A DNA stretch of 64,000 nt, taken from NCBI GenBank assembly GCA_020634245.1, contig JACKCC010000007.1, positions 484,555-548,554 of the forward strand, given 5' to 3'. A program made the position numbers and the translations under genes. Below the pieces are notes generated by a model. That model was not told the DNA's origin, did no database searches, and worked only from the letters and a program-made list of their open reading frames with translations. The DNA comes from Ardenticatenaceae bacterium. Its GTDB lineage: Bacteria; Chloroflexota; Anaerolineae; Promineifilales; Promineifilaceae. Below, piece after piece: positions 11,375 through 55,880 of this stretch (positions within the stretch are counted from its first letter, which is position 1; each line of letters begins with the position of its first letter).

Positions 11375-12271
11375 TTGACTGATGCTCCCCCCGTTTGTGA
11401 TTATGAAGGCTCTGATTACCGCACCCGATTTTGGGAGGGGCAGGGGCGGGATTATGAAGACCAGGTAGAACGCATCGCTTTGCGCCGTTTGATGCCGCCA
11501 ACCGGTTCGACATTGATTGAAATCGGTGCTGGCTTTGGCCGGTTGGCCGATGAATACATCGGCTATGACCAGGTTGTCCTATTTGATTATTCTCGTTCCT
11601 TGCTGCGTGAAGCGCAGGCTCATTTAGGTAACGATACCCGATTTATTTTTGTGGCCGGCAACTGGTATAACATGCCCTTTGTCTCCGGTTTGTTTGAGAC
11701 GATGGTGCAGATTCGTACTCTACACCATGCTGCTGATGCCCCGGCATTGTTTCGTGAACTGGCACGCATTGCCCGGCCTGATGGTCAGTATATTCTGGAA
11801 TTTGCCAACAAGTTGAATCTTAAGGCGATTCTGCGGTATTGGGCTAAGCGACAAAAATGGTCGCCCTTTGCACTAGAGCCGATTGAATTTGTTGATTTGA
11901 ATTTTGATTTTCATCCCCGTTGGATTCGGCAAGAATTGGCGGCTGCCAGATTTAGGCCAGGACGTATGCTGACGGTGTCGCATTACCGGATTGCCTTGTT
12001 GAAGCGATTGCTGCCAACCCGCTTGTTGGTGGGGATGGACGCGCTGGCACAGTGGACGGGTAATTGGTGGCAGTTGTCACCCAGTGTGTTTGTGTCTAAT
12101 GCGCATTTAGAGGGTGGGGGAACGGCCGTTCCCCATACATTCTTTGCCTGCCCAACTTGTAAAACCGCACTGGATGAGGTGACCAACAATCGATTGATCT
12201 GCCCTAATCCTGCCTGTGGTTACCAATGGGCAGTGGAGGATGGGCTTTACGATTTTAAAGAACCGGTGTGA
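11375..12271 (+). CDS. Class I SAM-dependent methyltransferase with a C-terminal Trm112-like zinc ribbon
   Basis: LIEIGAGFGRL is a glycine-rich SAM motif. C-terminal CPTC...CPNPAC motif. TTG start. Confidence 0.65.
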   Translation: MTDAPPVCDYEGSDYRTRFWEGQGRDYEDQVERIALRRLMPPTGSTLIEIGAGFGRLADEYIGYDQVVLFDYSRSLLREAQAHLGNDTRFIFVAGNWYNMPFVSGLFETMVQIRTLHHAADAPALFRELARIARPDGQYILEFANKLNLKAILRYWAKRQKWSPFALEPIEFVDLNFDFHPRWIRQELAAARFRPGRMLTVSHYRIALLKRLLPTRLLVGMDALAQWTGNWWQLSPSVFVSNAHLEGGGTAVPHTFFACPTCKTALDEVTNNRLICPNPACGYQWAVEDGLYDFKEPV

Positions 12272-12387: not shown

Positions 12388-12543
12388 ATGAGCAAGGAAC
12401 AAAACAGTACGCTTGGTCAAGGGCTGGTTGAATATGCCTTGATTCTTGGGCTGGTGGTTATCATAGTAGTGGTCGTGGTTTCGCTGCTTGGCCCTCAGGT
12501 TGGTAATATGTTTAGTCAGGTAACTGGCGGATTCTCCAGCTAA
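12388..12543 (+). CDS. Flp/Fap family type IVb pilin
   Basis: MSKEQNSTLGQGLVEYALILGLVVIIVVVVV... carries the G/xxxxEY prepilin motif and a hydrophobic stretch. 52 aa. Confidence 0.7.
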   Translation: MSKEQNSTLGQGLVEYALILGLVVIIVVVVVSLLGPQVGNMFSQVTGGFSS

Positions 12544-12618: not shown

Positions 12619-12638
12619 GGTTGCGTTATAATGGAACT

Positions 12639-13475
12639 ATGTCCGACGAATATAGTTATGTAAACTCTACTGCACCCTTCCTGAAATGGGCTGGCGGCAA
12701 ACAGCGTCTGTTGACTCAGTATCAGCCTTTTTTCCCCACTGCCGACGCCATCGGGCATTATTTTGAGCCATTTATTGGCAGTGCTGCGGTCTTCTTTCAG
12801 CAGCAGTACCCGGTTGCCACCTTGTCCGACCAAAATGGGAAGCTCATTGAGGTGTATCAACAGGTGCGGGATGACTTGGACCAAGTATTTGAGGCATTGG
12901 CGCCACACCGGAATGAGCCTGATTATTATTACGAGGTTCGCTCCCAGAACCCGGTAGATTTGGTTCCCGCCGAGCGAGCGGCCCGCCTGATTTATTTGAA
13001 CAAGACCTGTTATAACGGGTTGTATCGTGAAAACAGCAAAGGGGAGTTTAATGTTCCTTTTGGCCGGTACAAGAACCCGAAAATTTGTGACGAAGTCCGA
13101 CTGCGGGCGGCGTCGGCGGCTTTGCGGGGCGTCAATCTGAAGGTGGCTGATTTTGCCGAGGCGGTGGCAACGGCCGTTGCCAATGATTTCGTTTATTTTG
13201 ACCCGCCATACGTTCCCTTAAGTCCAACCAGCAGTTTTACCAATTACCACAAAAATGGATTTGGTCAGGCCGATCAGGAACGATTGGCAGATGTAGTGGC
13301 TGAATTGACAAAGCGCAATGTGATGGTTATGTTAAGCAACTCCAGCGCGCCGTTGGTTTATGAGTTGTACGGCCGTTCCTCCTATCGAATCATCGACATT
13401 CAAGCCCGGCGCAATATCAACAGCAAAGCCGGCCAGCGGGGGCCGGTAAAAGAACTGCTCATCCTAAATTATTGA
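12639..13475 (+). CDS. Dam-class (D12) N6-adenine DNA methyltransferase, apparently solitary
   Basis: PFLKWAGGKQRLL (motif I-like) and YFDPPY (motif IV). A perfect TATAAT at 12627-12632 lies 6 nt before the ATG, suggesting a leaderless mRNA. Confidence 0.8.
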   Translation: MSDEYSYVNSTAPFLKWAGGKQRLLTQYQPFFPTADAIGHYFEPFIGSAAVFFQQQYPVATLSDQNGKLIEVYQQVRDDLDQVFEALAPHRNEPDYYYEVRSQNPVDLVPAERAARLIYLNKTCYNGLYRENSKGEFNVPFGRYKNPKICDEVRLRAASAALRGVNLKVADFAEAVATAVANDFVYFDPPYVPLSPTSSFTNYHKNGFGQADQERLADVVAELTKRNVMVMLSNSSAPLVYELYGRSSYRIIDIQARRNINSKAGQRGPVKELLILNY

Positions 13476-29756: not shown

Positions 29757-31406
29757 CTAATCAAACAGGCTTTTTTGCTGCGGGCCGGGTTCCTGGACGC
29801 GCTGCGCCTGTTTGAAGGTCATGCCGGTGGGCGGCATTTGCACCTGCGACCCATTCAGCAGCGCTTCAATCGTTAGAATTTGAATCTTGGGGTAGTTTTG
29901 GTTCCAGCCCGGCGAATGGTAAAAACCGGCCGACGCCGCTTCGGTTAGCATCGGTTTGCTGGGCGTTTCCAGGGTGATAAAGACGCCCATGACCGCTTTT
30001 TCCCGGTCAACTGTGCCTACCAAATCCCGAATCTGGCCGCTGCCGACTTTGCCGCTTTTGACCTGGACGACGATGCGTTTGGGCCGGCCGGTATTGTCAT
30101 CCATGAACGTGATCGTGCCGTCAATGCCCTTGTCGGCTCCCTTTTTGCCTTTTTTGCCGTCGTCACTGCCGCTGGGCATGGCTTTGATGAGCGACAAGGC
30201 CCACCACTCAAACTGGAAGCGGTCGTCCTGGGCCAACTGCTGGGCCGAACGGACTGATTCCGGCTCGCCGATGACGTCAAACGAGGCATCGGGGAACATT
30301 TCTTGCAGGCGGTATTTTTGCAGGGCGATGGAGAGATGGGTGATGTCGATCCCGATCCATTTGCGCCCCAGCTTTTGCGCGGCGGCGATGGTTGTGCCGC
30401 AGCCGCAGAAAGGATCGAGCACAATGTCGCCAGGGTTGCTGCTGGCTTCAATAATCCTTTCCAACAAGGTTAATGGTTTTTGAGTGGGATAACCAAGACG
30501 TTCTTTCGCTTGGGAACTGATGGGGGGAATATCTAGCCAAATGTCTTGTAAGGGAACTCCAGGCATTTCATCCAGATATTGTTTTAGGCGCGGTAATCCT
30601 GTTCTTGTGTAGTATAGTCGTCCTTCCTGATCGAATTTTTGCATATTCTCTCTGGAGTACGCCCAAAATCTGCCTTTAGTTGGCTTACGCCCTTTCCATT
30701 CGTAAGAGGTGTCACCTCCTGGTTTAGCCGCCGTTAAGTCAGTCGCCTTGAAGCGTCGTCCGGTTTCTTCTTCTACATACCGATAGTTGGACTCAACATA
30801 TTCTAGATCGTATTCTGTGTAAACAGTATTCCAAATCCATTCATTGCTCTTTGAATAAAAGAAAATAATGTCATGGATTCGACCCGGTTGTTTTGACCCT
30901 TGTCTCGCGTCACTATGAGCGGACGAGCGTTTCCAGATGATTTCAGCACGGAAGCCTGTGGGATTAAAAACCGCATCAAGTAAGATTTTCAAATAATGAC
31001 TTGCTGTGGGATCGCAATGCAAGTAAAGACTGCCGGTGGGTTTCAAAACTCGGTGCAACTCAACCAAACGGGCTGTCATCATGACCAAGTAAGCCATCAT
31101 TTGATTTGTACCAATAAATTCACGTAAAGCAGCAATCATTCGGCTTACTTCATCTGAAGTCTGGGTGACAAGTTCCTCGTAAAGCGCAGCAGTAGCGTGA
31201 TCCCAATGCCAGGTATCTTCAAATGCGGCAATTTGGGCCTCGGATTCTTCACCGCTTTCATACTTGAACAGGACGTTGTAAGTGCGCTTGGAATTAAACG
31301 GAGGGTCCAGATAAACCAGGTCAACGCTCTCGTCGGGGACGTAGTCGCGCAGGATGGGCAGGTTGTCGCCGTAAAATAACGTGTTTTTCGTGATCGCTTT
31401 GGTCAT
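29757..31406 (-). CDS. Beta-class N4/N6 DNA methyltransferase fused to a C-terminal Mrr-like (PD-(D/E)xK) restriction endonuclease domain
   Basis: DPPF motif IV (LDPPFNSK) precedes motif I (LDPFCGCGTT), which is the beta-class order. The C-terminal ~170 aa carry FQFEWWALSLIK ... DKGIDG ... VVQVK ... IRDLVG ... matching the Mrr catalytic-domain pattern. Confidence 0.75.
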   Translation of the reverse strand: MTKAITKNTLFYGDNLPILRDYVPDESVDLVYLDPPFNSKRTYNVLFKYESGEESEAQIAAFEDTWHWDHATAALYEELVTQTSDEVSRMIAALREFIGTNQMMAYLVMMTARLVELHRVLKPTGSLYLHCDPTASHYLKILLDAVFNPTGFRAEIIWKRSSAHSDARQGSKQPGRIHDIIFFYSKSNEWIWNTVYTEYDLEYVESNYRYVEEETGRRFKATDLTAAKPGGDTSYEWKGRKPTKGRFWAYSRENMQKFDQEGRLYYTRTGLPRLKQYLDEMPGVPLQDIWLDIPPISSQAKERLGYPTQKPLTLLERIIEASSNPGDIVLDPFCGCGTTIAAAQKLGRKWIGIDITHLSIALQKYRLQEMFPDASFDVIGEPESVRSAQQLAQDDRFQFEWWALSLIKAMPSGSDDGKKGKKGADKGIDGTITFMDDNTGRPKRIVVQVKSGKVGSGQIRDLVGTVDREKAVMGVFITLETPSKPMLTEAASAGFYHSPGWNQNYPKIQILTIEALLNGSQVQMPPTGMTFKQAQRVQEPGPQQKSLFD

Positions 31407-40137: not shown

Positions 40138-40337
40138 GATTTTCTCCTGAGTGCGCGTATTGTACATCAGCGGCCAAGGGCGTCAAAGCCCGTAGATTGG
40201 CCGACTCTGAAAATCAATTTGAATAACCGGACAAGATCATAGACAATAAAAGGCGAAATAAATCGATTCGTGGATCTGGCAAGTCAGCCTATAATCGGCA
40301 GAAAATGTGTCAGGTTTTAAGACAAGGTGAAGTAACA

Positions 40338-41786
40338 ATGGCCGAACCACTTAAAATATTATTCCTCAGTGCAGAAGTCGCGCCTTTTGCCAAGACGGGC
40401 GGTCTGGGTGACATTGGCGGCTCCCTTCCCAAAGCACTGAGAGCATTGGGACATGATGTGCGGGTAATGATGCCCGCTTACAAAAACATCGAGTCGGGGT
40501 ATCCTGGTGTGGAATCTATTCCTATTCGGCTGGATGTGCCGACAAACTTCGGTGATATTCCGGCCGGTGTATTTCAGGGTACGCTGCCTGACAGCGATGT
40601 CCCTGTTTATTTCGTTGCTGAATGGCACCTGTTCAACCGGCCTACATTGTATGGCTATTGGGACGATCCTTATCGTTTTGCCTTTTTTAGCCGGGCGGCG
40701 CTGGAACTGACGGTCAAGTTGAACTGGAAGCCGGATGTGCTGCATGCTCACGATTGGCATACCGCCCCGGCCATCACCTGGCTCTCCACGGCCGGGCAGG
40801 GTTACGAACATTTCCGGGGCATCCCCAGCGTTTTCACCATTCACAATCTGGCGCATCAGGGCAAGGTTAACTGGGAGATTTTTGATTATTTGGGTATTCA
40901 GACCCATTCACTGGTGGAAGAAGCGTACGGTGAAGTCAATTTTATGGCGCGTGGCATCTACCATGCCACGATGGTGAACACGGTCAGCCCCACGTATGCG
41001 CGGGAAATCACGACAAAAGAGGGCGGCGCTGGTATGGATGCGCTGCTGCGCCATCGTCAGTATGATTTGCATGGCATTTTGAATGGGCTGGATTATGATG
41101 CCTGGAATCCGGCAGTGGATAAGCGGCTGGCGGCCAGTTTTAGTGTGGATGATATGAACGGCCGTCTTCATAACCGGCGTGTGCTGCAAGAACGTTCCAA
41201 TCTGCCGGTACGCGATGACATTCCCATCGTGGCTATGGTTTCCCGGCTGGACTGGCAAAAAGGGCTGGACATCACCGGCCACGTCATTCATTTGCTTATG
41301 AATGGCTTCTCTGGCGAGGCGCAGTTCATCGTTTTGGGCACAGGCGAGCATCATTACGAGCAGATGTTTGCCCAACTGGCCGGCTATCATCACGGCAAAA
41401 TGGCCGCTTTCCTTGATTACAACGCCGGTTTTGCCCCGCTCATTTACGGTGGCAGCGATATTTTCATTATGCCCTCGTTGTTTGAACCGTGCGGACTGGG
41501 GCAGATGATTGCCATGCGCTATGGCAGTGTACCCGTCGTGCGGGCCACCGGCGGCCTGGCCGATACGGTGCAGGACACCATCAATGGCTTTACCTTCCAG
41601 GATTATAGCACCGATGCGTTCTGGAATGCTTTGCAGCGAGCCATTTACATTTACAACGTGGACAAAAAGAGCTGGCAGGCTATTCAGCGCAACGGCATGC
41701 TGGCCGATTTTTCCTGGGAGAAGTCGGGACTGGGTTACCAGCAGGTATATGAATGGGCGCTGGCCCGCGCAGCCAGCGGTGGTTAA
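40338..41786 (+). CDS. glgA: Glycogen synthase (GT5)
   Basis: ILFLSAEVAPFAKTGGLGDIGGSLP is the GlgA K-T-G-G-L motif. Confidence 0.85.
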   Translation: MAEPLKILFLSAEVAPFAKTGGLGDIGGSLPKALRALGHDVRVMMPAYKNIESGYPGVESIPIRLDVPTNFGDIPAGVFQGTLPDSDVPVYFVAEWHLFNRPTLYGYWDDPYRFAFFSRAALELTVKLNWKPDVLHAHDWHTAPAITWLSTAGQGYEHFRGIPSVFTIHNLAHQGKVNWEIFDYLGIQTHSLVEEAYGEVNFMARGIYHATMVNTVSPTYAREITTKEGGAGMDALLRHRQYDLHGILNGLDYDAWNPAVDKRLAASFSVDDMNGRLHNRRVLQERSNLPVRDDIPIVAMVSRLDWQKGLDITGHVIHLLMNGFSGEAQFIVLGTGEHHYEQMFAQLAGYHHGKMAAFLDYNAGFAPLIYGGSDIFIMPSLFEPCGLGQMIAMRYGSVPVVRATGGLADTVQDTINGFTFQDYSTDAFWNALQRAIYIYNVDKKSWQAIQRNGMLADFSWEKSGLGYQQVYEWALARAASGG

Positions 41787-41850
41787 AAAAGAGCCTGTCA
41801 CTCCTCAAGTGGTAGGCTTTTTGATCGGGCTGATAAACGGATATCATAAA

Positions 41851-41930
41851 ACTTTCCGGAAGCTAAGTTGGGTCATTTTTGACTTCGTTTAACTCATTTA
41901 GTCTCATCTATTTGTCAGCTTCCGGAAAGT
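41851..41930. repeat. TTCC(C)GGAA composite palindrome, copy d
   Basis: ACTTTCCGGAAGCT ...52 nt... AGCTTCCGGAAAGT. Confidence 0.55.
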
Positions 41931-42001
41931 TGATACCCTGTTTTTGAAAGCCAGCGCATTTGACATTTACTAGCCGGTATGGGAGAATTCTCGCTGGTTA
42001 T

Positions 42002-42073
42002 GCCCCCGTAGCTCAGAGGATAGAGCGTCGGCCTCCGAAGCCGGAAGCCCAGGTTCGAGTCCTGGCGGGGGCA
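42002..42073 (+). tRNA. tRNA-Arg (anticodon CCG)
   Basis: Cloverleaf with acceptor GCCCCCG/CGGGGGC, D-arm GCTCagaggatAGAGC and anticodon loop cuCCGaa. The T-arm is GGTTCGAGTCC. CCA is not encoded. A T-run follows. Confidence 0.85.
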
Positions 42074-42087
42074 TTTTTTGTTGCCTG

Positions 42088-42501
42088 TTAGCCCTGGCTG
42101 TCGGGGGCGATGGGCGGCGTGGGCCAGGGTGTTGGGGCTGGCGGCGGCGGGATGAGTTCTTGTGGTGGTGGCGGCGCAATCAGTAATGGTGGATTAGCGA
42201 TGGGGAGACTGTGTTCGGAGTTAACGGCCGTTTCCACAGTCACTCCGGCCATATTTGTGTCTGAACGATTCCCTGATGGCCCACTTTGCATATTGAACAA
42301 GAAAATAGCCACAATCAGCATCATCACCGCGACAACTCCCATCAAGTAGGAGACAACTTTGGGAAATCGCCGGCCTTTAAGCTCTTTGCCTTGTTTAGGC
42401 TCCGGCCGTTCTTCAAGCGGGGCTATGGTTTGTTCGTATTCCTCGCGCAAGGCCAGCATGGCCTGGTCTAAATCTTGCTGCGGCTTCTTTTTATCACTCA
42501 T
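42088..42501 (-). CDS. Hypothetical single-TM protein with a Pro-rich C-terminus
   Basis: 137-aa ORF immediately downstream of the Flp-like repeat protein, with a 13-bp gap. Confidence 0.5.
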   Translation of the reverse strand: MSDKKKPQQDLDQAMLALREEYEQTIAPLEERPEPKQGKELKGRRFPKVVSYLMGVVAVMMLIVAIFLFNMQSGPSGNRSDTNMAGVTVETAVNSEHSLPIANPPLLIAPPPPQELIPPPPAPTPWPTPPIAPDSQG

Positions 42502-42514
42502 TTGATTTCCCTTA

Positions 42515-43684
42515 TTATTTCAGCGTAATGGTTGTACTGCTGCCGGCGGCGGTGTTGAAAACGGCTGACCAGAAGGAATGACTTTTATAATCAGCCCGAA
42601 ACTGATAGCTGCCGCGAGGCAGATCAAAGGTGACGCTGCCCTGGTTATCGGTTTTACCATACAAACCAAAATAGCTGCCATTGTCGGTAAACGCGTAAAC
42701 CCAGATGTTTTTAACAGGTCTCCCATCGTCATCAACAACGTTAACGGCGAACGGCCGTTCTTCTGTTTTAATGACGGCCGTATCCGTGCCCGGAACGGTT
42801 ACCTTTTCCGACCAGTATTCATTGCCCCGGTAATCGACACGGAATTGATAGGTTCCGGCGGGGACATCCAGGCGGGCACGGCCGTTGCCATTTGTCCGGT
42901 CATAAATACCGGTATAGCTGCCATCTTCCGTATAGCCATAAACCGCTAGATTGCTTTCTTTGATGCCTTTGCCGGCATCATCGACGACAGTGACATCGAT
43001 GGTGTATTGGCGGATTTCGATGGTAGTGGCATTTTGGGCTGGCGAATTAACGGCCGGTGACCAGTACCACTGTCCGTTGACGTAGGCCCGGAATTTGTAG
43101 TCACCATCAGGCAGTTCGAGCACGATCTGGCCATTGTTATCGGTGCGGCCGTACACACCTGACCAATATTGCTCATCGGCCGTATAGGCATAGACATAAA
43201 CATTGGTCATCCCCCTGCCTTTTTCGTCCACAACCGTGACAGTGAAATCCTGAACATTCATCCTGATGCTGGTTTGATTTTGCTGTGGGAAATTAAGATA
43301 TTCAGACCAATAGAAATGTGGATTTTTGTAGGCCAGGAAATGGTAAACACCCTTTTGCATTCCTTCAAAAAGAGCAGCGCCTTCGTTATCGGTAATTCCA
43401 TAAAGGCCCAGCCAGTTTCCATCGCCATCAAAGGCATATACGTAAATGTCAGCTGCACCCTGGTTGCCATTGTCCAAGACGGTTACTTTTATCGTGTCGG
43501 ATGGCAAATCATTATCGGATAAGCCGAAAGCCTGGTTAATACGGGTCAAAACATCTTGCGTATCCGCCCCAATCACCGCTAAAATTAAAACGGTCGCGGC
43601 AACGACCAATGTTAGAATCAGAGCATATTCCGTTAAACCTTGTCCACAGTTTTTTAGATCTGTTCTTTTGTGTGAATTGTCCAT
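42515..43684 (-). CDS. Flp-type prepilin-like N-terminus fused to four tandem CarboxypepD_reg-like (prealbumin-fold) repeats
   Basis: N-terminal GQGLTEYALILTLVVAATVLIL is nearly identical to the small Flp pilin at 12388. It is followed by four ~85-aa repeats of the type V.VVD..G.P......YVYA.T.DG.Y.G.YG.TDN.G. Confidence 0.6.
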   Translation of the reverse strand: MDNSHKRTDLKNCGQGLTEYALILTLVVAATVLILAVIGADTQDVLTRINQAFGLSDNDLPSDTIKVTVLDNGNQGAADIYVYAFDGDGNWLGLYGITDNEGAALFEGMQKGVYHFLAYKNPHFYWSEYLNFPQQNQTSIRMNVQDFTVTVVDEKGRGMTNVYVYAYTADEQYWSGVYGRTDNNGQIVLELPDGDYKFRAYVNGQWYWSPAVNSPAQNATTIEIRQYTIDVTVVDDAGKGIKESNLAVYGYTEDGSYTGIYDRTNGNGRARLDVPAGTYQFRVDYRGNEYWSEKVTVPGTDTAVIKTEERPFAVNVVDDDGRPVKNIWVYAFTDNGSYFGLYGKTDNQGSVTFDLPRGSYQFRADYKSHSFWSAVFNTAAGSSTTITLK

Positions 43685-44071
43685 AGCAGTTTGCCTCATC
43701 CATAAGATGGCAACTGGAAAATCTTTAGCTGCCTGTCTATCATTTGTCTATTGGACTATAACATTGAAGAGGGGGAAAAATCTGTAGGAATTTAAGGCCA
43801 GTGGGTAAAAACCCGTATGCATACAGTAGTGCTCCAGTACCCGTATTCAGTAATCCGTGTCCCGTAATTCGAAGGCGTCATCTCTGAAAAACATGTCAGA
43901 TTACGGTATACGGGCATCGGGTTAAGGGTTTGAGTCACAAAAAAGGAGACGTCCCCTATAAGGAGCCTCTCCTTTTGGTCATGGTAAAATGGCAGTATGG
44001 TTAAAGATGGTCCCCCTCTTGGGTGTTGCCGGGTAAAATAACCCAATTAACACCAAACAGGAGAGGGGTCA

Positions 44072-44542
44072 ATGAATCAATTAGCCAATGTTGGCGATTT
44101 TTGTCCAAATGAAGCCTGCCCGGATTATGGTAAGCTTCAGAAAAAACAGTCAAAACAGAACATTAAAAAACATGGTTTCACGGCAACCGGCATACAGCGC
44201 TTCCAATGCCGGACTTGTGGTCAGACATTTACGGCTACGAAAGGAACGCCCTTCTACCGGCGGCGGACAGATTCCGAAGAAATCTTGGAAACCCTGGCCT
44301 TCCTAGCCGAAGGTGTTCGGATCAGCACTCTGGCTCGCGTTCAAGGCCATAAAGAAGACACCATTCTGGCGTGGCTCAAAGATGCAGCAACTCATGTCGC
44401 TGAAATCGAATCCGTTTTGTTGGCCAACTACCAACTGGAACGGGGTCAACTGGATGCGATGTGGAGTTACGTGGCGCACAAAGGTGAAAAAAAGGCTATC
44501 CCGAGACAGAAGAACAAGGGCAGTTCTGGCGAGCGACCATGA
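44072..44542 (+). CDS. insA: IS1 InsA-like protein
   Basis: See the mobile element entry. Confidence 0.65.
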   Translation: MNQLANVGDFCPNEACPDYGKLQKKQSKQNIKKHGFTATGIQRFQCRTCGQTFTATKGTPFYRRRTDSEEILETLAFLAEGVRISTLARVQGHKEDTILAWLKDAATHVAEIESVLLANYQLERGQLDAMWSYVAHKGEKKAIPRQKNKGSSGERP

Positions 44543-45174
44543 TTGACAGTGATACCCGGCTCCGCGTCGCCAGCGGCATTGCCAAGACCGAAACGGAAGC
44601 GTCGCAGATTGTATTCACAATGCTCAAGCAGCGGGGTCATCCTGACAAGCCGCCACCGACTATCTCCGATGGTTGGGGCGGCATCCGGGAAGCGATGGTT
44701 GAAGTGTACGGTCAAGTGCCGCCCTATTCAGGGCGTGGTCGCCCACCAACGCTTAAGCAGCCAGGCGAGGATTGGCAATATCTGCAAATGGTCAAGCAAC
44801 GGGAAAACGGTCGGGTCATAGGGACTGAATTACGGGTCATTTACGGTGATGAAACGGAAGTGCTGGCCTTGTTAGGCAAGAGCACCAGTTATATTGAGCG
44901 CTCCAACTTAACCAGTCGTCATTTCAACAGCCGCTTAACCCGGAAAACATTGGCCTTTTCCAAAACCATCGCGATGCATCAGGCGGCAGCAACGCTGGAA
45001 GATGCCTACTACAATCTGGTACGGCCACACAAAACACTGCGTCAGGAGGTCGTTGCCCAAGGCCGTCGTTGGTTACCGCGAACACCGGCCATGGCCTCTG
45101 CTTTGACTGAGCATATTTGGACTGTTAAAGAACTATTTTCAAACATCCCAGTCCCCATCGTTAACAACACTTAA
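44539..45174 (+). CDS. insB: IS1 InsB-like transposase, probably expressed as an InsAB' fusion by -1 frameshift
   Basis: See the mobile element entry. Confidence 0.6.
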   Translation: MIDSDTRLRVASGIAKTETEASQIVFTMLKQRGHPDKPPPTISDGWGGIREAMVEVYGQVPPYSGRGRPPTLKQPGEDWQYLQMVKQRENGRVIGTELRVIYGDETEVLALLGKSTSYIERSNLTSRHFNSRLTRKTLAFSKTIAMHQAAATLEDAYYNLVRPHKTLRQEVVAQGRRWLPRTPAMASALTEHIWTVKELFSNIPVPIVNNT

Positions 45175-45190
45175 CGGGGAGACTATCTGG

Positions 45191-46147
45191 TTAAATTGAG
45201 GCGATGAATGTGTGACCGGTCATGCCTGTAGATACGGTAAAGAGACTGGTCAGCCAGACCCGGCGGATGGTGAGGAGGGGGGATATGGCGGCATGTTCGT
45301 TGCGTGATAACGGCCGTTCCGAGTAATACCCCGCAAAAAAGGCCTCCGACTGCTCCTCTGACCGGTGCATTAAATTGGTGTTAAGCAAAAAGGCGGCGAT
45401 GTCATACGCCCGCCAGCCAGGCCCGCATAAATCGAAATTAAAGAAGGTTGGGATACCGTTCTTGTCAAAGCGGACGCTGGCATTGTGGAAATCACCGCCA
45501 ATCGGGCCCCAACTGTCTGGCGTTTCTTCTTCGTTGTGCAGTAAAGCCAACATTTCCTCTTTGGCTTCCTGTGCAGATGTGATGACCAGGTCTAAATCAT
45601 CTTTGCGGCTCTTGTCCCACAACCGTTTGATTCGTTCCACCGATTTATCGACTAAGTATTCCAGGTTCATGGGCTGCCGCTGGTAAGGGCTTTTGTATTG
45701 ATTGGAAACAACATGAATCCGGGCTATGGCTGCGCCACATTGATAAAGTTGTTCAGCGTTATCTAACGACATTACCTGGCCAGGGGCAAAACTGAACAAG
45801 GCATAATAGCGCAGACCTTCCGGCGCATCGACGCTGCCCAGAAAACGGCCGTCACGCCGGGCCAGCGGGTAAGACACAGAAACGTCGTTCGCTTTCAAAA
45901 AGTTAAGCCAATCCAGTTCGTACAAATAATCCGATTCTTCCCGGCCCAGCGGGGTTCCCAACTGGTAGATGCGGGCAACGTACCTGGTGTTGTCGGCCGT
46001 ACGAACCAGGTAATGATCATTATCCTGGGTACGCACCATTTTGCTGAACAATTGGCAGCTTACTGGCCCCAGGTCGTATTCGTTGGTAATGACTTCGGCC
46101 AGCGCATCACTGTCGATAAATGAGCGGGCTACACGTATTTGAGTCAC
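45191..46147 (-). CDS. Aminoglycoside/homoserine-kinase-type phosphotransferase (APH family)
   Basis: GPIGGDFHNASVRFDKNG is a Brenner motif-like catalytic loop. The IS1 element ends 16 bp beyond its stop codon. Confidence 0.6.
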   Translation of the reverse strand: MTQIRVARSFIDSDALAEVITNEYDLGPVSCQLFSKMVRTQDNDHYLVRTADNTRYVARIYQLGTPLGREESDYLYELDWLNFLKANDVSVSYPLARRDGRFLGSVDAPEGLRYYALFSFAPGQVMSLDNAEQLYQCGAAIARIHVVSNQYKSPYQRQPMNLEYLVDKSVERIKRLWDKSRKDDLDLVITSAQEAKEEMLALLHNEEETPDSWGPIGGDFHNASVRFDKNGIPTFFNFDLCGPGWRAYDIAAFLLNTNLMHRSEEQSEAFFAGYYSERPLSRNEHAAISPLLTIRRVWLTSLFTVSTGMTGHTFIASI

Positions 46148-54829: not shown

Positions 54830-55880
54830 TACACTCCTAAAGTTTGACACCACATCAGACAAAGGAGTATCCGATGAGAGGCTTAACAGATTATATTACA
54901 CAGGCAGCATGGAGCGATATTTTGACGGTTCAATATGTTTTGGTAGATGATTCTTATCAACAACTGGATGTCCATATTTTGCCTGAGCGCAAATTTGCAC
55001 CACAAGGGACGCCTTGCTTTAGTGATTCTGAGGTCATCACCATTGCCCTTTTGGGAGAGATGGTTTTTGCCGGTGATGAAGATAAAACACTGCACTTTAT
55101 ACGACAATATCATCTCGACATGTTTCCTCATTTGCTCGATAACTCTCGTTTCAATCGCCGTCGTCATCAGCTAGCGGGCGTCATGGAAGCGATTCGAGAG
55201 CATTTGCGAGACCGTTGGCGGGCAAAACATCCTCTAGATATCGAAACAGAAAACTTGCGTATCGTGGATAGTGCGCCCATCTCTATCTGCACCTATACTC
55301 GTGGTGGTCGTTGCCAGAGCATCCCATTAGATTGGCGAGATGAATGGTTTGGCGTTTGTACCAGCAAGAAAGCCAAGTTTTTTGGCGCGCGTTGCCACAT
55401 AACAACGACCCTAGACCAGATGATTGACACCTGGTTACTAGCTCCGGGTTCTTATGATGACCGTAAACCCATGGCCGCCTTGTTAGAAAATCGTCATGGA
55501 CTGTCCGTTATCGGCGACAAAGGCTATGTCAGTGAAGACCTCGCCCATCGTTTGTGGGAAGATGACCAACATCTACTCCTTGCTTTGAAGAAGGATAATC
55601 AAACAGAACAATGGCCTGACGGAATCCAACGAATATTGGGTTATTTGCGCCATCGGGTCGAAACAGCCTTTAGTGTGCTGGAAAACGTATTCGATTTTGA
55701 AAGTCCTAAATCCCGTTCGCTTGCTGGGTTGATTGCTCGGACAACCACGAAGATTTTGGCTTATACCATTAGCTTCTTTCTTGCCGAGATTCTCACCCCA
55801 GAGCTTAGCAATTAGAGTCTCATACTCCGCACGGTATACTATCTATTGTAAGGTTGTTATCAACTTTTCACTATGGCCTT
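54830..55880 (+). mobile_element. IS982-family insertion sequence (approximate ends)
   Basis: Single-ORF ~1 kb low-GC element between two GC-rich housekeeping genes. The inverted repeats were not identified, so the ends are approximate. Confidence 0.5.
54874..55815 (+). CDS. IS982-family DDE transposase
   Basis: AAGGAG RBS. D (VDSAPI), D (GDKGY) and E (RVETAF) motifs, typical of IS982/ISNCY-like transposases. The gene and its flanks have low GC. Confidence 0.65.
   Translation: MRGLTDYITQAAWSDILTVQYVLVDDSYQQLDVHILPERKFAPQGTPCFSDSEVITIALLGEMVFAGDEDKTLHFIRQYHLDMFPHLLDNSRFNRRRHQLAGVMEAIREHLRDRWRAKHPLDIETENLRIVDSAPISICTYTRGGRCQSIPLDWRDEWFGVCTSKKAKFFGARCHITTTLDQMIDTWLLAPGSYDDRKPMAALLENRHGLSVIGDKGYVSEDLAHRLWEDDQHLLLALKKDNQTEQWPDGIQRILGYLRHRVETAFSVLENVFDFESPKSRSLAGLIARTTTKILAYTISFFLAEILTPELSN

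Follow-up and report, generated by a model that had tools for sequence, protein, structure and literature searches.

Among type IV pilins, Flp is regarded as the minimal one, consisting essentially of one helix. A locus of an Ardenticatenaceae bacterium (phylum Chloroflexota) raises the question of what such a helix does at the N-terminus of a protein of 389 amino acids, and of how the gene came to lie between a tRNA gene and an insertion sequence (IS). The locus is part of the 64-kb stretch of contig JACKCC010000007.1 that was analyzed here (the window). It comprises two genes, here called the cassette: one for a putative modular prepilin with four repeat domains, and one for a small Pro-rich membrane protein, its partner. 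Our analysis indicates that the head of the larger protein corresponds to a complete Flp pilin and that the two genes are kept together. As to function, we favor, with about an even chance of being right, a modular Flp (type IVc) pilin that would undergo cleavage by a prepilin peptidase and be displayed on, or by, a Tad machinery whose genes lie elsewhere.

The Flp-type head and the repeat domains

A preliminary description of this DNA had reported a protein of 389 amino acids at this position, leaving its strand unstated, in which a Flp/Tad-type class III signal was fused to four tandem prealbumin-like repeats of ~85 amino acids. The open reading frame (ORF) is present on the minus strand. 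From its first ATG it spans 42515..43699 and would encode 394 amino acids (alternative start at 43699); the start at 43684 (MDNSH..., 389 amino acids) likely gives the actual product, since it is preceded at ~10 nt by a GAGG stretch and is the start used by homologues and by the NCBI model H6667_06130. The GAGG stretch is kept in L003, L012 and L015, three of the homologous loci (L001 onward) that were compared with the window. At the N-terminus, a leader of 14 residues (MDNSHKRTDLKNCG) precedes QGLTEYALIL..., and the sequence after the leader reads QGLTEYALILTLVVAATVLILAVIG ADTQDVLTRINQAFG. A linker of nine residues (LSDNDLPSD, residues 55-63) then connects the Flp module with the first repeat.

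The repeats, four in number and 81-83 amino acids each, with 31-41% identity to repeat 1, are recognized by the Pfam model CarboxypepD_reg (PF13620; 80.4 bits against a cut-off of 32.3) and by fold matches. Structure prediction, which the preliminary description had proposed for this region, gave four confident β-sandwich domains: AlphaFold2, run on an alignment of 22 homologues, modeled each of them with a predicted local distance difference test (pLDDT) score >90, the mean for the whole protein being 84.8, and placed helices at residues 22-43 and 47-57 of the 394-residue form. The protein ends immediately after repeat 4 (...AAGSSTTITLK), and it lacks an LPXTG sorting signal with a hydrophobic tail at its C-terminus. 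Among the 19 families with E ≤ 0.1 in the Pfam scan there was no TadE-like domain (PF07811). A pilin module, a short linker and domains that are not specific to pili are also the parts that define modular pilins (PMC8179133), and all three are found here in that arrangement.

Class III signals are recognized by a hydrophilic leader of 6-26 residues that ends in Gly, followed by ~21 hydrophobic residues with a Glu at position 5 (PMC4471445). The leader length, the terminal Gly and the hydrophobic stretch QGLTE5YALILTLVVAATVLIL with its Glu5 all agree with this description, and G/QGLTEY agrees with the Flp motif G/XXXXEY, in which the slash marks the cut. Around the cleavage site, 10 of 11 residues are identical to those of a canonical Flp pilin (MSKEQNSTLG/QGLVEYALIL...) encoded by another ORF of the window; the near-identity noted in the preliminary description is thus confirmed, with 51 amino acids as the length of that Flp.

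These residues are conserved throughout the family. In the alignment of the same 22 homologues, the Glu and Tyr are invariant and the Gly and Gln at least 90% conserved; the Gly before the cut is present in all 34 distinct heads, and the Glu is replaced by Asp in one paralogue. A search of a collection of 5.8 billion proteins returned 52 homologues, 36 of which carry the Flp head, the other 16 being unrelated repeat proteins or fragments. Mean column identity is lowest in the leader (0.40) and reaches 0.76 in the mature head and 0.67-0.75 in the domains. A variable leader followed by a mature head that is conserved like the domains is the usual pattern of prepilins. Conservation of the head throughout the family places the true start upstream of the head and not downstream of the Flp-like segment, a possibility that the preliminary description had raised against its own reading. 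The distal helix of the head is conserved as well (G44, D46, F51 and R53), which would seem to exceed what a mere anchor needs.

Profile comparisons point in the same direction. A profile of 21 heads aligned by hhalign with the 51 amino acid Flp of the window (probability 98.2%, E = 3e-14, 48 columns of 51 residues) and, because the alignment takes in the whole of that Flp, the head can be regarded as a complete Flp pilin and not just as a signal. An exhaustive search of 1.84 billion representative sequences with the head profile gave 26,114 matches at E ≤ 1e-3. The best matches are proteins of 48-100 amino acids that score 70-117 bits, compared with 58-88 bits for the family's own heads. Among the best 150, the median length is 76.5 amino acids and 108 proteins are ≤100 amino acids long; this list is without the family's own 389 amino acid members, although their heads score 80-88 bits locally, so that the representative library evidently holds the family minus its head and the length distribution says nothing about how rare long Flp fusions are.

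We consider it very unlikely that the N-terminus is an ordinary Sec signal peptide or signal-anchor with a chance likeness to Flp, which would make the protein a generic exported repeat protein. The head of the window protein, taken alone, does lack a Pfam match, and BLASTP aligns only 8 of its residues with the genome's 51 amino acid Flp. Against this stand the invariance or near-invariance of G, Q, E and Y in the 34 heads, the full-length profile match to the genome's Flp and the thousands of matches to the head, the best of which are of Flp size. Moreover, Sec signals do not typically have a charged Glu at position 5 of their hydrophobic core. Neither the residues of the head nor the other features listed here are due to chance. 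Database pipelines already apply the labels "Flp family type IVb pilin" and "Flp pilus assembly pilin" to some members of the family.

The partner and the proposed display of the protein

The preliminary description had joined to the pilin-headed protein a co-transcribed Pro-rich protein with a single transmembrane segment. As a co-encoded pair, this arrangement is found in all ten contexts examined (the window, L002, L003, L004/5, L006, L007, L008, L009, L012-14 and L015): each has a partner-type ORF of 83-150 amino acids directly downstream of the pilin gene, with gaps from a few to 60 nt and, in L015, an overlap of 4 nt. The L003 copy is shortened by an apparent assembly frameshift. The collection of 5.8 billion proteins holds 14 partner homologues, at least seven of which are on contigs that match in length those with a member of the main family. 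Because they are paired in every context examined, we regard pilin and partner as a functional unit.

The partner has an N-terminal helix (residues 7-25) with a conserved LxxLRxxY motif, one predicted transmembrane helix (residues 48-72), a basic juxtamembrane motif (EPKxGKELKxRRFPK) and a Pro-rich C-terminal half, in which a variable stretch is followed by a near-invariant C-terminal PxPTPWPTPPIxPDS. By the positive-inside rule, its N-terminus would be cytoplasmic and its Pro-rich tail outside. It has no class III signal and belongs to no Pfam or NCBIfam family, and AlphaFold2 gives no clue to its fold, since the model is mostly unstructured outside the two helices. Two candidate identities were rejected: an anti-sigma factor, as there is no adjacent sigma factor gene, and a protein with a C-terminal sorting signal, as no transmembrane segment comes after the conserved C-terminal motif.

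If the favored reading is correct, the class III signal would direct insertion of the prepilin into the membrane, and a TadV/CpaA-type peptidase encoded elsewhere would, to judge from the motif, cut after Gly14 and leave Q-G-L-T-E5-Y6. Because the 40 retained residues amount to a whole Flp pilin, the module could pack into a Tad filament made mainly of the 51 amino acid Flp, where the modular protein would probably be a low-abundance or tip subunit. The linker would project a rod of four transthyretin/CnaB-like β-sandwiches, ~15 nm long by domain size, with a putative adhesive or spacing role. The co-translated partner, in the orientation given above, may assist in membrane handling, anchoring or passage through the wall.

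Several published observations are relevant to this proposal. The grafting of modules onto pilins is documented for type IVa pilins (PMC8179133), Tad pili carry tips of minor pilins with variable domains (PMC12075869), and prepilin peptidases have been described as promiscuous (PMC12075869). In filamentous Chloroflexota and in metagenome-assembled genomes (MAGs) from reactors, the pilus system that has been reported is Tad (PMC7332563, PMC10746286, PMC9942424); the supplementary tables of one of these studies contain no searchable tad or Ardenticatenales entries (PMC10746286).

A number of points weigh against the proposal. Our analysis of tad genes covered the window and the loci of homologues: the 64-kb window contains no tadV, tadA, tadB/C or tadE/F, and none of the ten contexts has a tad gene within 10 kb of the homologue. 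Flp pilins are typically small (about 45-80 amino acids) and encoded in or near tad loci, and the present protein, with its 389 residues, departs from both. The window head has no match to the Pfam model Flp_Fap (PF04964), and the heads of one homologue and one paralogue score 18.3 and 23.2 bits, below the gathering score of 32.2. An appendage of 330 residues carried by each subunit would be an unusual steric load for a Tad fiber, and the known Tad tips are heterotrimers of TadE/F/G-like proteins, not Flp fusions, and have no Pro-rich non-pilin partner. Because the four domains are similar and the protein lacks a distinct binding domain at its end, an adhesin is only one possibility for what is displayed.

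Some of these points lose force within this genome and clade. The Flp_Fap model is weak here, since the genome's undisputed 51 amino acid Flp itself scores only 21.1 bits. The homologue and paralogue heads do give matches to it, at E = 6e-5 and 2e-3. That Flp, the probable major pilin, is also encoded by an orphan gene, so that pilin genes unlinked to tad genes are normal in this genome. No tad genes lie near the canonical flp, which is flanked by genes for an S-adenosylmethionine methyltransferase (11375-12271) and a Dam-type N6-adenine methyltransferase (12621-13475); its other neighbors include a peptidase gene. A phmmer search of the fetched loci with a T2SSE ATPase query found only an unrelated cluster on L003 that resembles type II secretion systems and type IV pili. 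Lying ~5 kb from the cassette (L003 15661-21125), it encodes a GspC-like T2SSC protein, a frameshift-split secretin, an MshEN-T2SSE ATPase and T2SSF. The secretin comes as a surprise, since this phylum is generally taken to be monoderm.

The same separation from tad genes could also mean that no true pilus is involved. In this possible, although rather unlikely, alternative, the class III head would serve processing and membrane retention, or a very short pseudopilus, and the rod would stand as a stalk or spacer in the multilayered envelope of Chloroflexota; the Pro-rich partner would span the same layer and dock to the rod, as in the archaeal bindosome or a surface-layer (S-layer) stalk. The cassette is never linked to tad genes, and a pair that spans the envelope would be consistent with an obligatory non-pilin partner whose Pro-rich ectodomain is extended. 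Precedents for such use of the signal are archaeal: sugar-binding proteins carry class III signals (PMC4471445), and in protein P0052 of a heimdallarchaeote an archaeal class III head precedes the same type of repeat. However, the head of the present protein keeps the entire Flp module, including its distal helix, and not just a cut site and hydrophobicity. Our literature searches found no bacterial use of Flp heads outside filaments, nor any paper on Flp-headed multi-domain proteins.

A third possibility is raised by a second, longer Flp-headed paralogue of 475-559 amino acids with more CarboxypepD_reg repeats (six in L002), which in L002 has its own partner of 150 amino acids. It lies between the tRNA gene and glgA in L003, L009 and L012 and before the tRNA gene in L002, whereas the window and L015 lack it. 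Paralogues with more repeats (475-567 amino acids), sometimes in tandem with the four-repeat gene, suggest that the thickness of a fiber could be tuned, and the family might thus form the major subunit of a thick "bottle-brush" fiber of its own, with four β-sandwiches per subunit, like the archaeal pilins that bear immunoglobulin (Ig)-like domains. The conservation of the complete Flp module and the cassette's own conserved promoter-like element (see below) would suit this idea, which we nevertheless hold to be improbable: the short canonical Flp is the obvious major pilin of this genome, no cassette-specific assembly genes are present, 330 extra residues per ~1-nm rise look sterically costly, and the modular pilins characterized so far are minor subunits (PMC8179133).

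A bolder proposal, which we would not expect to be right, is that the cassette is self-contained and has repurposed a minimal Flp as a polymerizing or anchoring handle for a large β-sandwich rod. It would build a thick, Tad-derived "bottle-brush" fiber or an envelope-spanning palisade in filamentous Chloroflexota, and the partner with its PTPWPTPP tail would be a dedicated pilin tether or assembly factor of a new class. The family would then have arisen inside the Tad lineage of "minimal pilins" as a bacterial counterpart of the archaeal domain-bearing type IV pilins.

Genomic setting of the cassette

The preliminary description had placed the cassette in an islet at a tRNA integration hotspot, and had suggested comparative genomics of this locus. 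The tRNA gene is indeed there, as tRNA-Arg(CCG), and its 3' end abuts the cassette, with an IS element nearby. Nevertheless, the order APH-family kinase gene, cassette, tRNA-Arg(CCG) and glgA is common to five genomes (the window, L002, L003, L012 and L015), the cassette proteins of the other four having 51-69% identity to those of the window; LysM/LTD follows glgA in the window, L012 and L015. The tRNA-Arg gene follows the partner in L003, L009, L012 and L015, and the second pair in L002. With 49.5% guanine plus cytosine (GC) against 52.2% for the window, the cassette is normal in composition, and the window holds neither an integrase ORF nor a second copy of the tRNA 3' end. The IS element has its own 8-bp target-site duplication and lies at the opposite end of the cassette from the tRNA gene.

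Integration of a horizontally acquired islet at tRNA-Arg is contradicted by this synteny down to 51% protein identity, the normal GC content and the missing integrase and repeat. It is the least probable of the explanations considered here, and we regard the tRNA gene as a conserved neighbor and not as an integration scar. The cassette appears to be inherited vertically in a narrow clade of Chloroflexota (MAGs of the Ardenticatenales/Anaerolineae type). In the more distant relatives L004, L006, L007 and L008 it lies in unrelated neighborhoods, with the partner and without tad genes. A scan of GTDB species genomes returned only three loci and added little taxonomic breadth. The positions of all features are collected in the table.

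Features of the cassette and its surroundings (positions in the window unless a locus is named)
Feature	Position	Strand	Basis and remarks
Canonical Flp pilin gene, 51 amino acids	12388..12543	plus	ORF; Pfam Flp_Fap E 2.8e-4, 21.1 bits, below cut-off
glgA	40305-41786	plus	
tRNA-Arg(CCG)	42001-42074	plus	ARAGORN; Rfam 70.6 bits; convergent with cassette
Partner gene, 137 amino acid bitopic membrane protein (NCBI H6667_06125)	42088..42501	minus	ORF; 13 nt after stop of main gene
Putative modular Flp-type prepilin gene (NCBI H6667_06130)	42515..43684	minus	ORF, 389 amino acids; 100% identical to P0001
Leader peptide M1-G14	43643..43684	minus	Hydrophilic (K, R, K); Gly before predicted prepilin-peptidase cut
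Complete Flp pilin module Q15-G54	43523..43642	minus	Hydrophobic α1N helix with Glu5-Tyr6, then short amphipathic helix
Four tandem CarboxypepD_reg/transthyretin-like β-sandwich domains	42518..43495	minus	Pfam, AlphaFold2
Repeats R1, R2, R3, R4 (approximate limits)	43259-43495, 43013-43258, 42764-43012, 42518-42763	minus	
Conserved promoter-like element AAATTCCTA-N24-TATAGT	43755..43793	minus	TGn before -10 hexamer
Inverted repeat, 16-nt arms	43840-55 / 43899-914		88% complementary; in window-specific ~96-nt segment
Intrinsic terminator of APH-family gene, hairpin and T-run	43936..43976	minus	Terminator scan; hairpin 43941-43976
Target-site duplication TGGTTAAA, 8 bp, left copy	43998..44005		
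IS1-family element, 1182 bp	44006..45187	plus	insA 44072-44542; insB' 44539-45174
Target-site duplication, right copy	45188..45195		Holds stop codon of APH-family gene
APH-family kinase gene	45191-46147	minus	Stop codon 45191-45193
Longer paralogue regions	L002 11665-13920; L003 11836-12864; L009 6408-8087; L012 3238-4665		

The IS1 insertion noted earlier beside the cassette is present, with both of its ORFs. Its 8-bp duplication is perfect and its terminal inverted repeats agree at 17 of 25 positions; insB' is in the -1 frame and opens at 44488, at an A7 slippery site (44487-44493). This is the classical frameshift layout of IS1, and the element looks intact. The family assignment is supported by the NCBIfam IS1 zinc domain (38.3 bits against a cut-off of 28) and Pfam DDE_Tnp_IS1 (25.3 bits against 24.1), while the IS1 transposase model, with 55 bits, stays under its equivalog cut-off of 100. 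The short-read contig of L001 ends at ~44031, inside the IS. A second, unrelated transposase gene of the IS4/IS5-like type (DDE_Tnp_1, 54844-55815) lies elsewhere in the window, between a hybrid histidine kinase gene and a molybdopterin oxidoreductase operon.

Removal of the IS and one copy of the duplication makes the window collinear with L003, L012 and L015, giving the stop codon of the APH-family gene, a hairpin with a T-run and the promoter-like element in that order. In those three loci, too, the APH stop is followed by this hairpin and T-run, and the hairpin pointed out in the preliminary description is therefore the terminator of the APH-family gene. The IS, whose insertion point is 3 nt past the APH stop codon, has separated the gene from this terminator. 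By this comparison, it is the only recent arrival, unrelated to the cassette and upstream of its promoter.

The spacer between cassette and IS measures ~320 nt. The preliminary description had treated part of it as one structured region; the hairpin and the CCCGTAT-type motifs are both real, whereas the single region resolves into the terminator, a segment unique to the window and the promoter-like element. The segment of ~96 nt (43830-43930), with four copies of CCCGTA/TACGGG, is absent from the spacers of L003, L012 and L015 and could be a remnant of a miniature inverted-repeat transposable element (MITE) or an operator array. A scan of 41800-45400 against Rfam returned only the tRNA, with no riboswitch in the leader and nothing for the CCCGTAT segment. 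The promoter-like element AAATTCCTA-N24-TATAGT has one match in the window against 0.06 expected; its fuller form reads AAATTCCTA(C/A)AG-N~20-TGnTATAGT. The 9-mer occurs exactly once per ~20-kb locus in L001-L006, L009 and L010, ~75-110 nt upstream of the first cassette gene, and is absent upstream of the canonical flp at 12388. As the spacing exceeds what a sigma-70 -35 box allows, the element may bind a regulator. At some distance from the cassette, an ORF of 549 amino acids (29757-31406) fuses an N6_N4_Mtase methylase to an Mrr-like endonuclease, possibly a type IIG-like or defense gene.

Significance and relation to known systems

The family would extend to Tad pili the principle of a module grafted onto a pilin, and a co-inherited non-pilin partner would add something new to it. 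It is a candidate for how the poorly studied filamentous Chloroflexota adhere to each other and to flocs or surfaces, and it offers a test case for whether a Tad machine can handle a subunit ~eight times the normal size. The locus also holds two lessons for annotation: an attractive but wrong reading as a tRNA islet is corrected, and an IS1-family insertion is seen to have split a gene from its terminator.

With the Flp/Fap pilins of Tad pili (PF04964; Flp1 of A. actinomycetemcomitans, PilA of Caulobacter), the protein shares the leader ending in Gly, the G/XXXXEY motif and the hydrophobic helix. In contrast to them, it is of 389 instead of about 45-80 amino acids, falls below the Pfam gathering score and is not encoded beside tad genes. 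Tad tips (TadE/F/G; KilL/M/N of Myxococcus) embody the same idea of variable domains carried on pili, and their genes can lie outside the machinery cluster (PMC12075869). Whereas these tips are heterotrimers of TadE/F/G pseudopilins, here there is a single Flp-type fusion, with a partner that is not a pilin and no TadE signal.

Archaeal class III surface proteins (the Sulfolobus bindosome and pilins with Ig-like domains) likewise use a pilin signal to display large extracellular domains, but the head described here is of the bacterial Flp type and not Pilin_N, and no Bas-like assembly genes are nearby. A parallel design is seen in P0052, from a MAG of Candidatus Heimdallarchaeota, in which an archaeal class III signal (…KRNRAVSPVVATVILISLVL…) precedes CarboxypepD_reg repeats; these share ~32% identity with the repeat region of the window protein and nothing with its head. 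The best structural matches to the repeats come from sortase pilins and the stalks of MSCRAMMs (microbial surface components recognizing adhesive matrix molecules), namely BcpA, SpaA, the B repeats of Cna and TIE of B. anthracis, which form tandem CnaB/transthyretin-like rods. Identity to them is 9-21% and, in contrast to these proteins, there is no LPXTG or C-terminal anchor here, the anchoring information being N-terminal.

Finally, the modular type IV pilins (PilB with a vWA domain and PilC with a lectin domain in S. sanguinis, CofB of enterotoxigenic Escherichia coli; PMC8179133) have the same succession of pilin module, short linker and non-pilus domains, and the role to be expected is likewise that of presenting a functional module on a type IV filament. 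Their carrier is a type IVa pilin with a globular head and IPR012902, the only class surveyed (PMC8179133), whereas the carrier described here is a minimal, all-helical Flp, encoded outside any pilus locus together with an obligatory non-pilin partner and bearing a homotypic graft of four CarboxypepD_reg domains.

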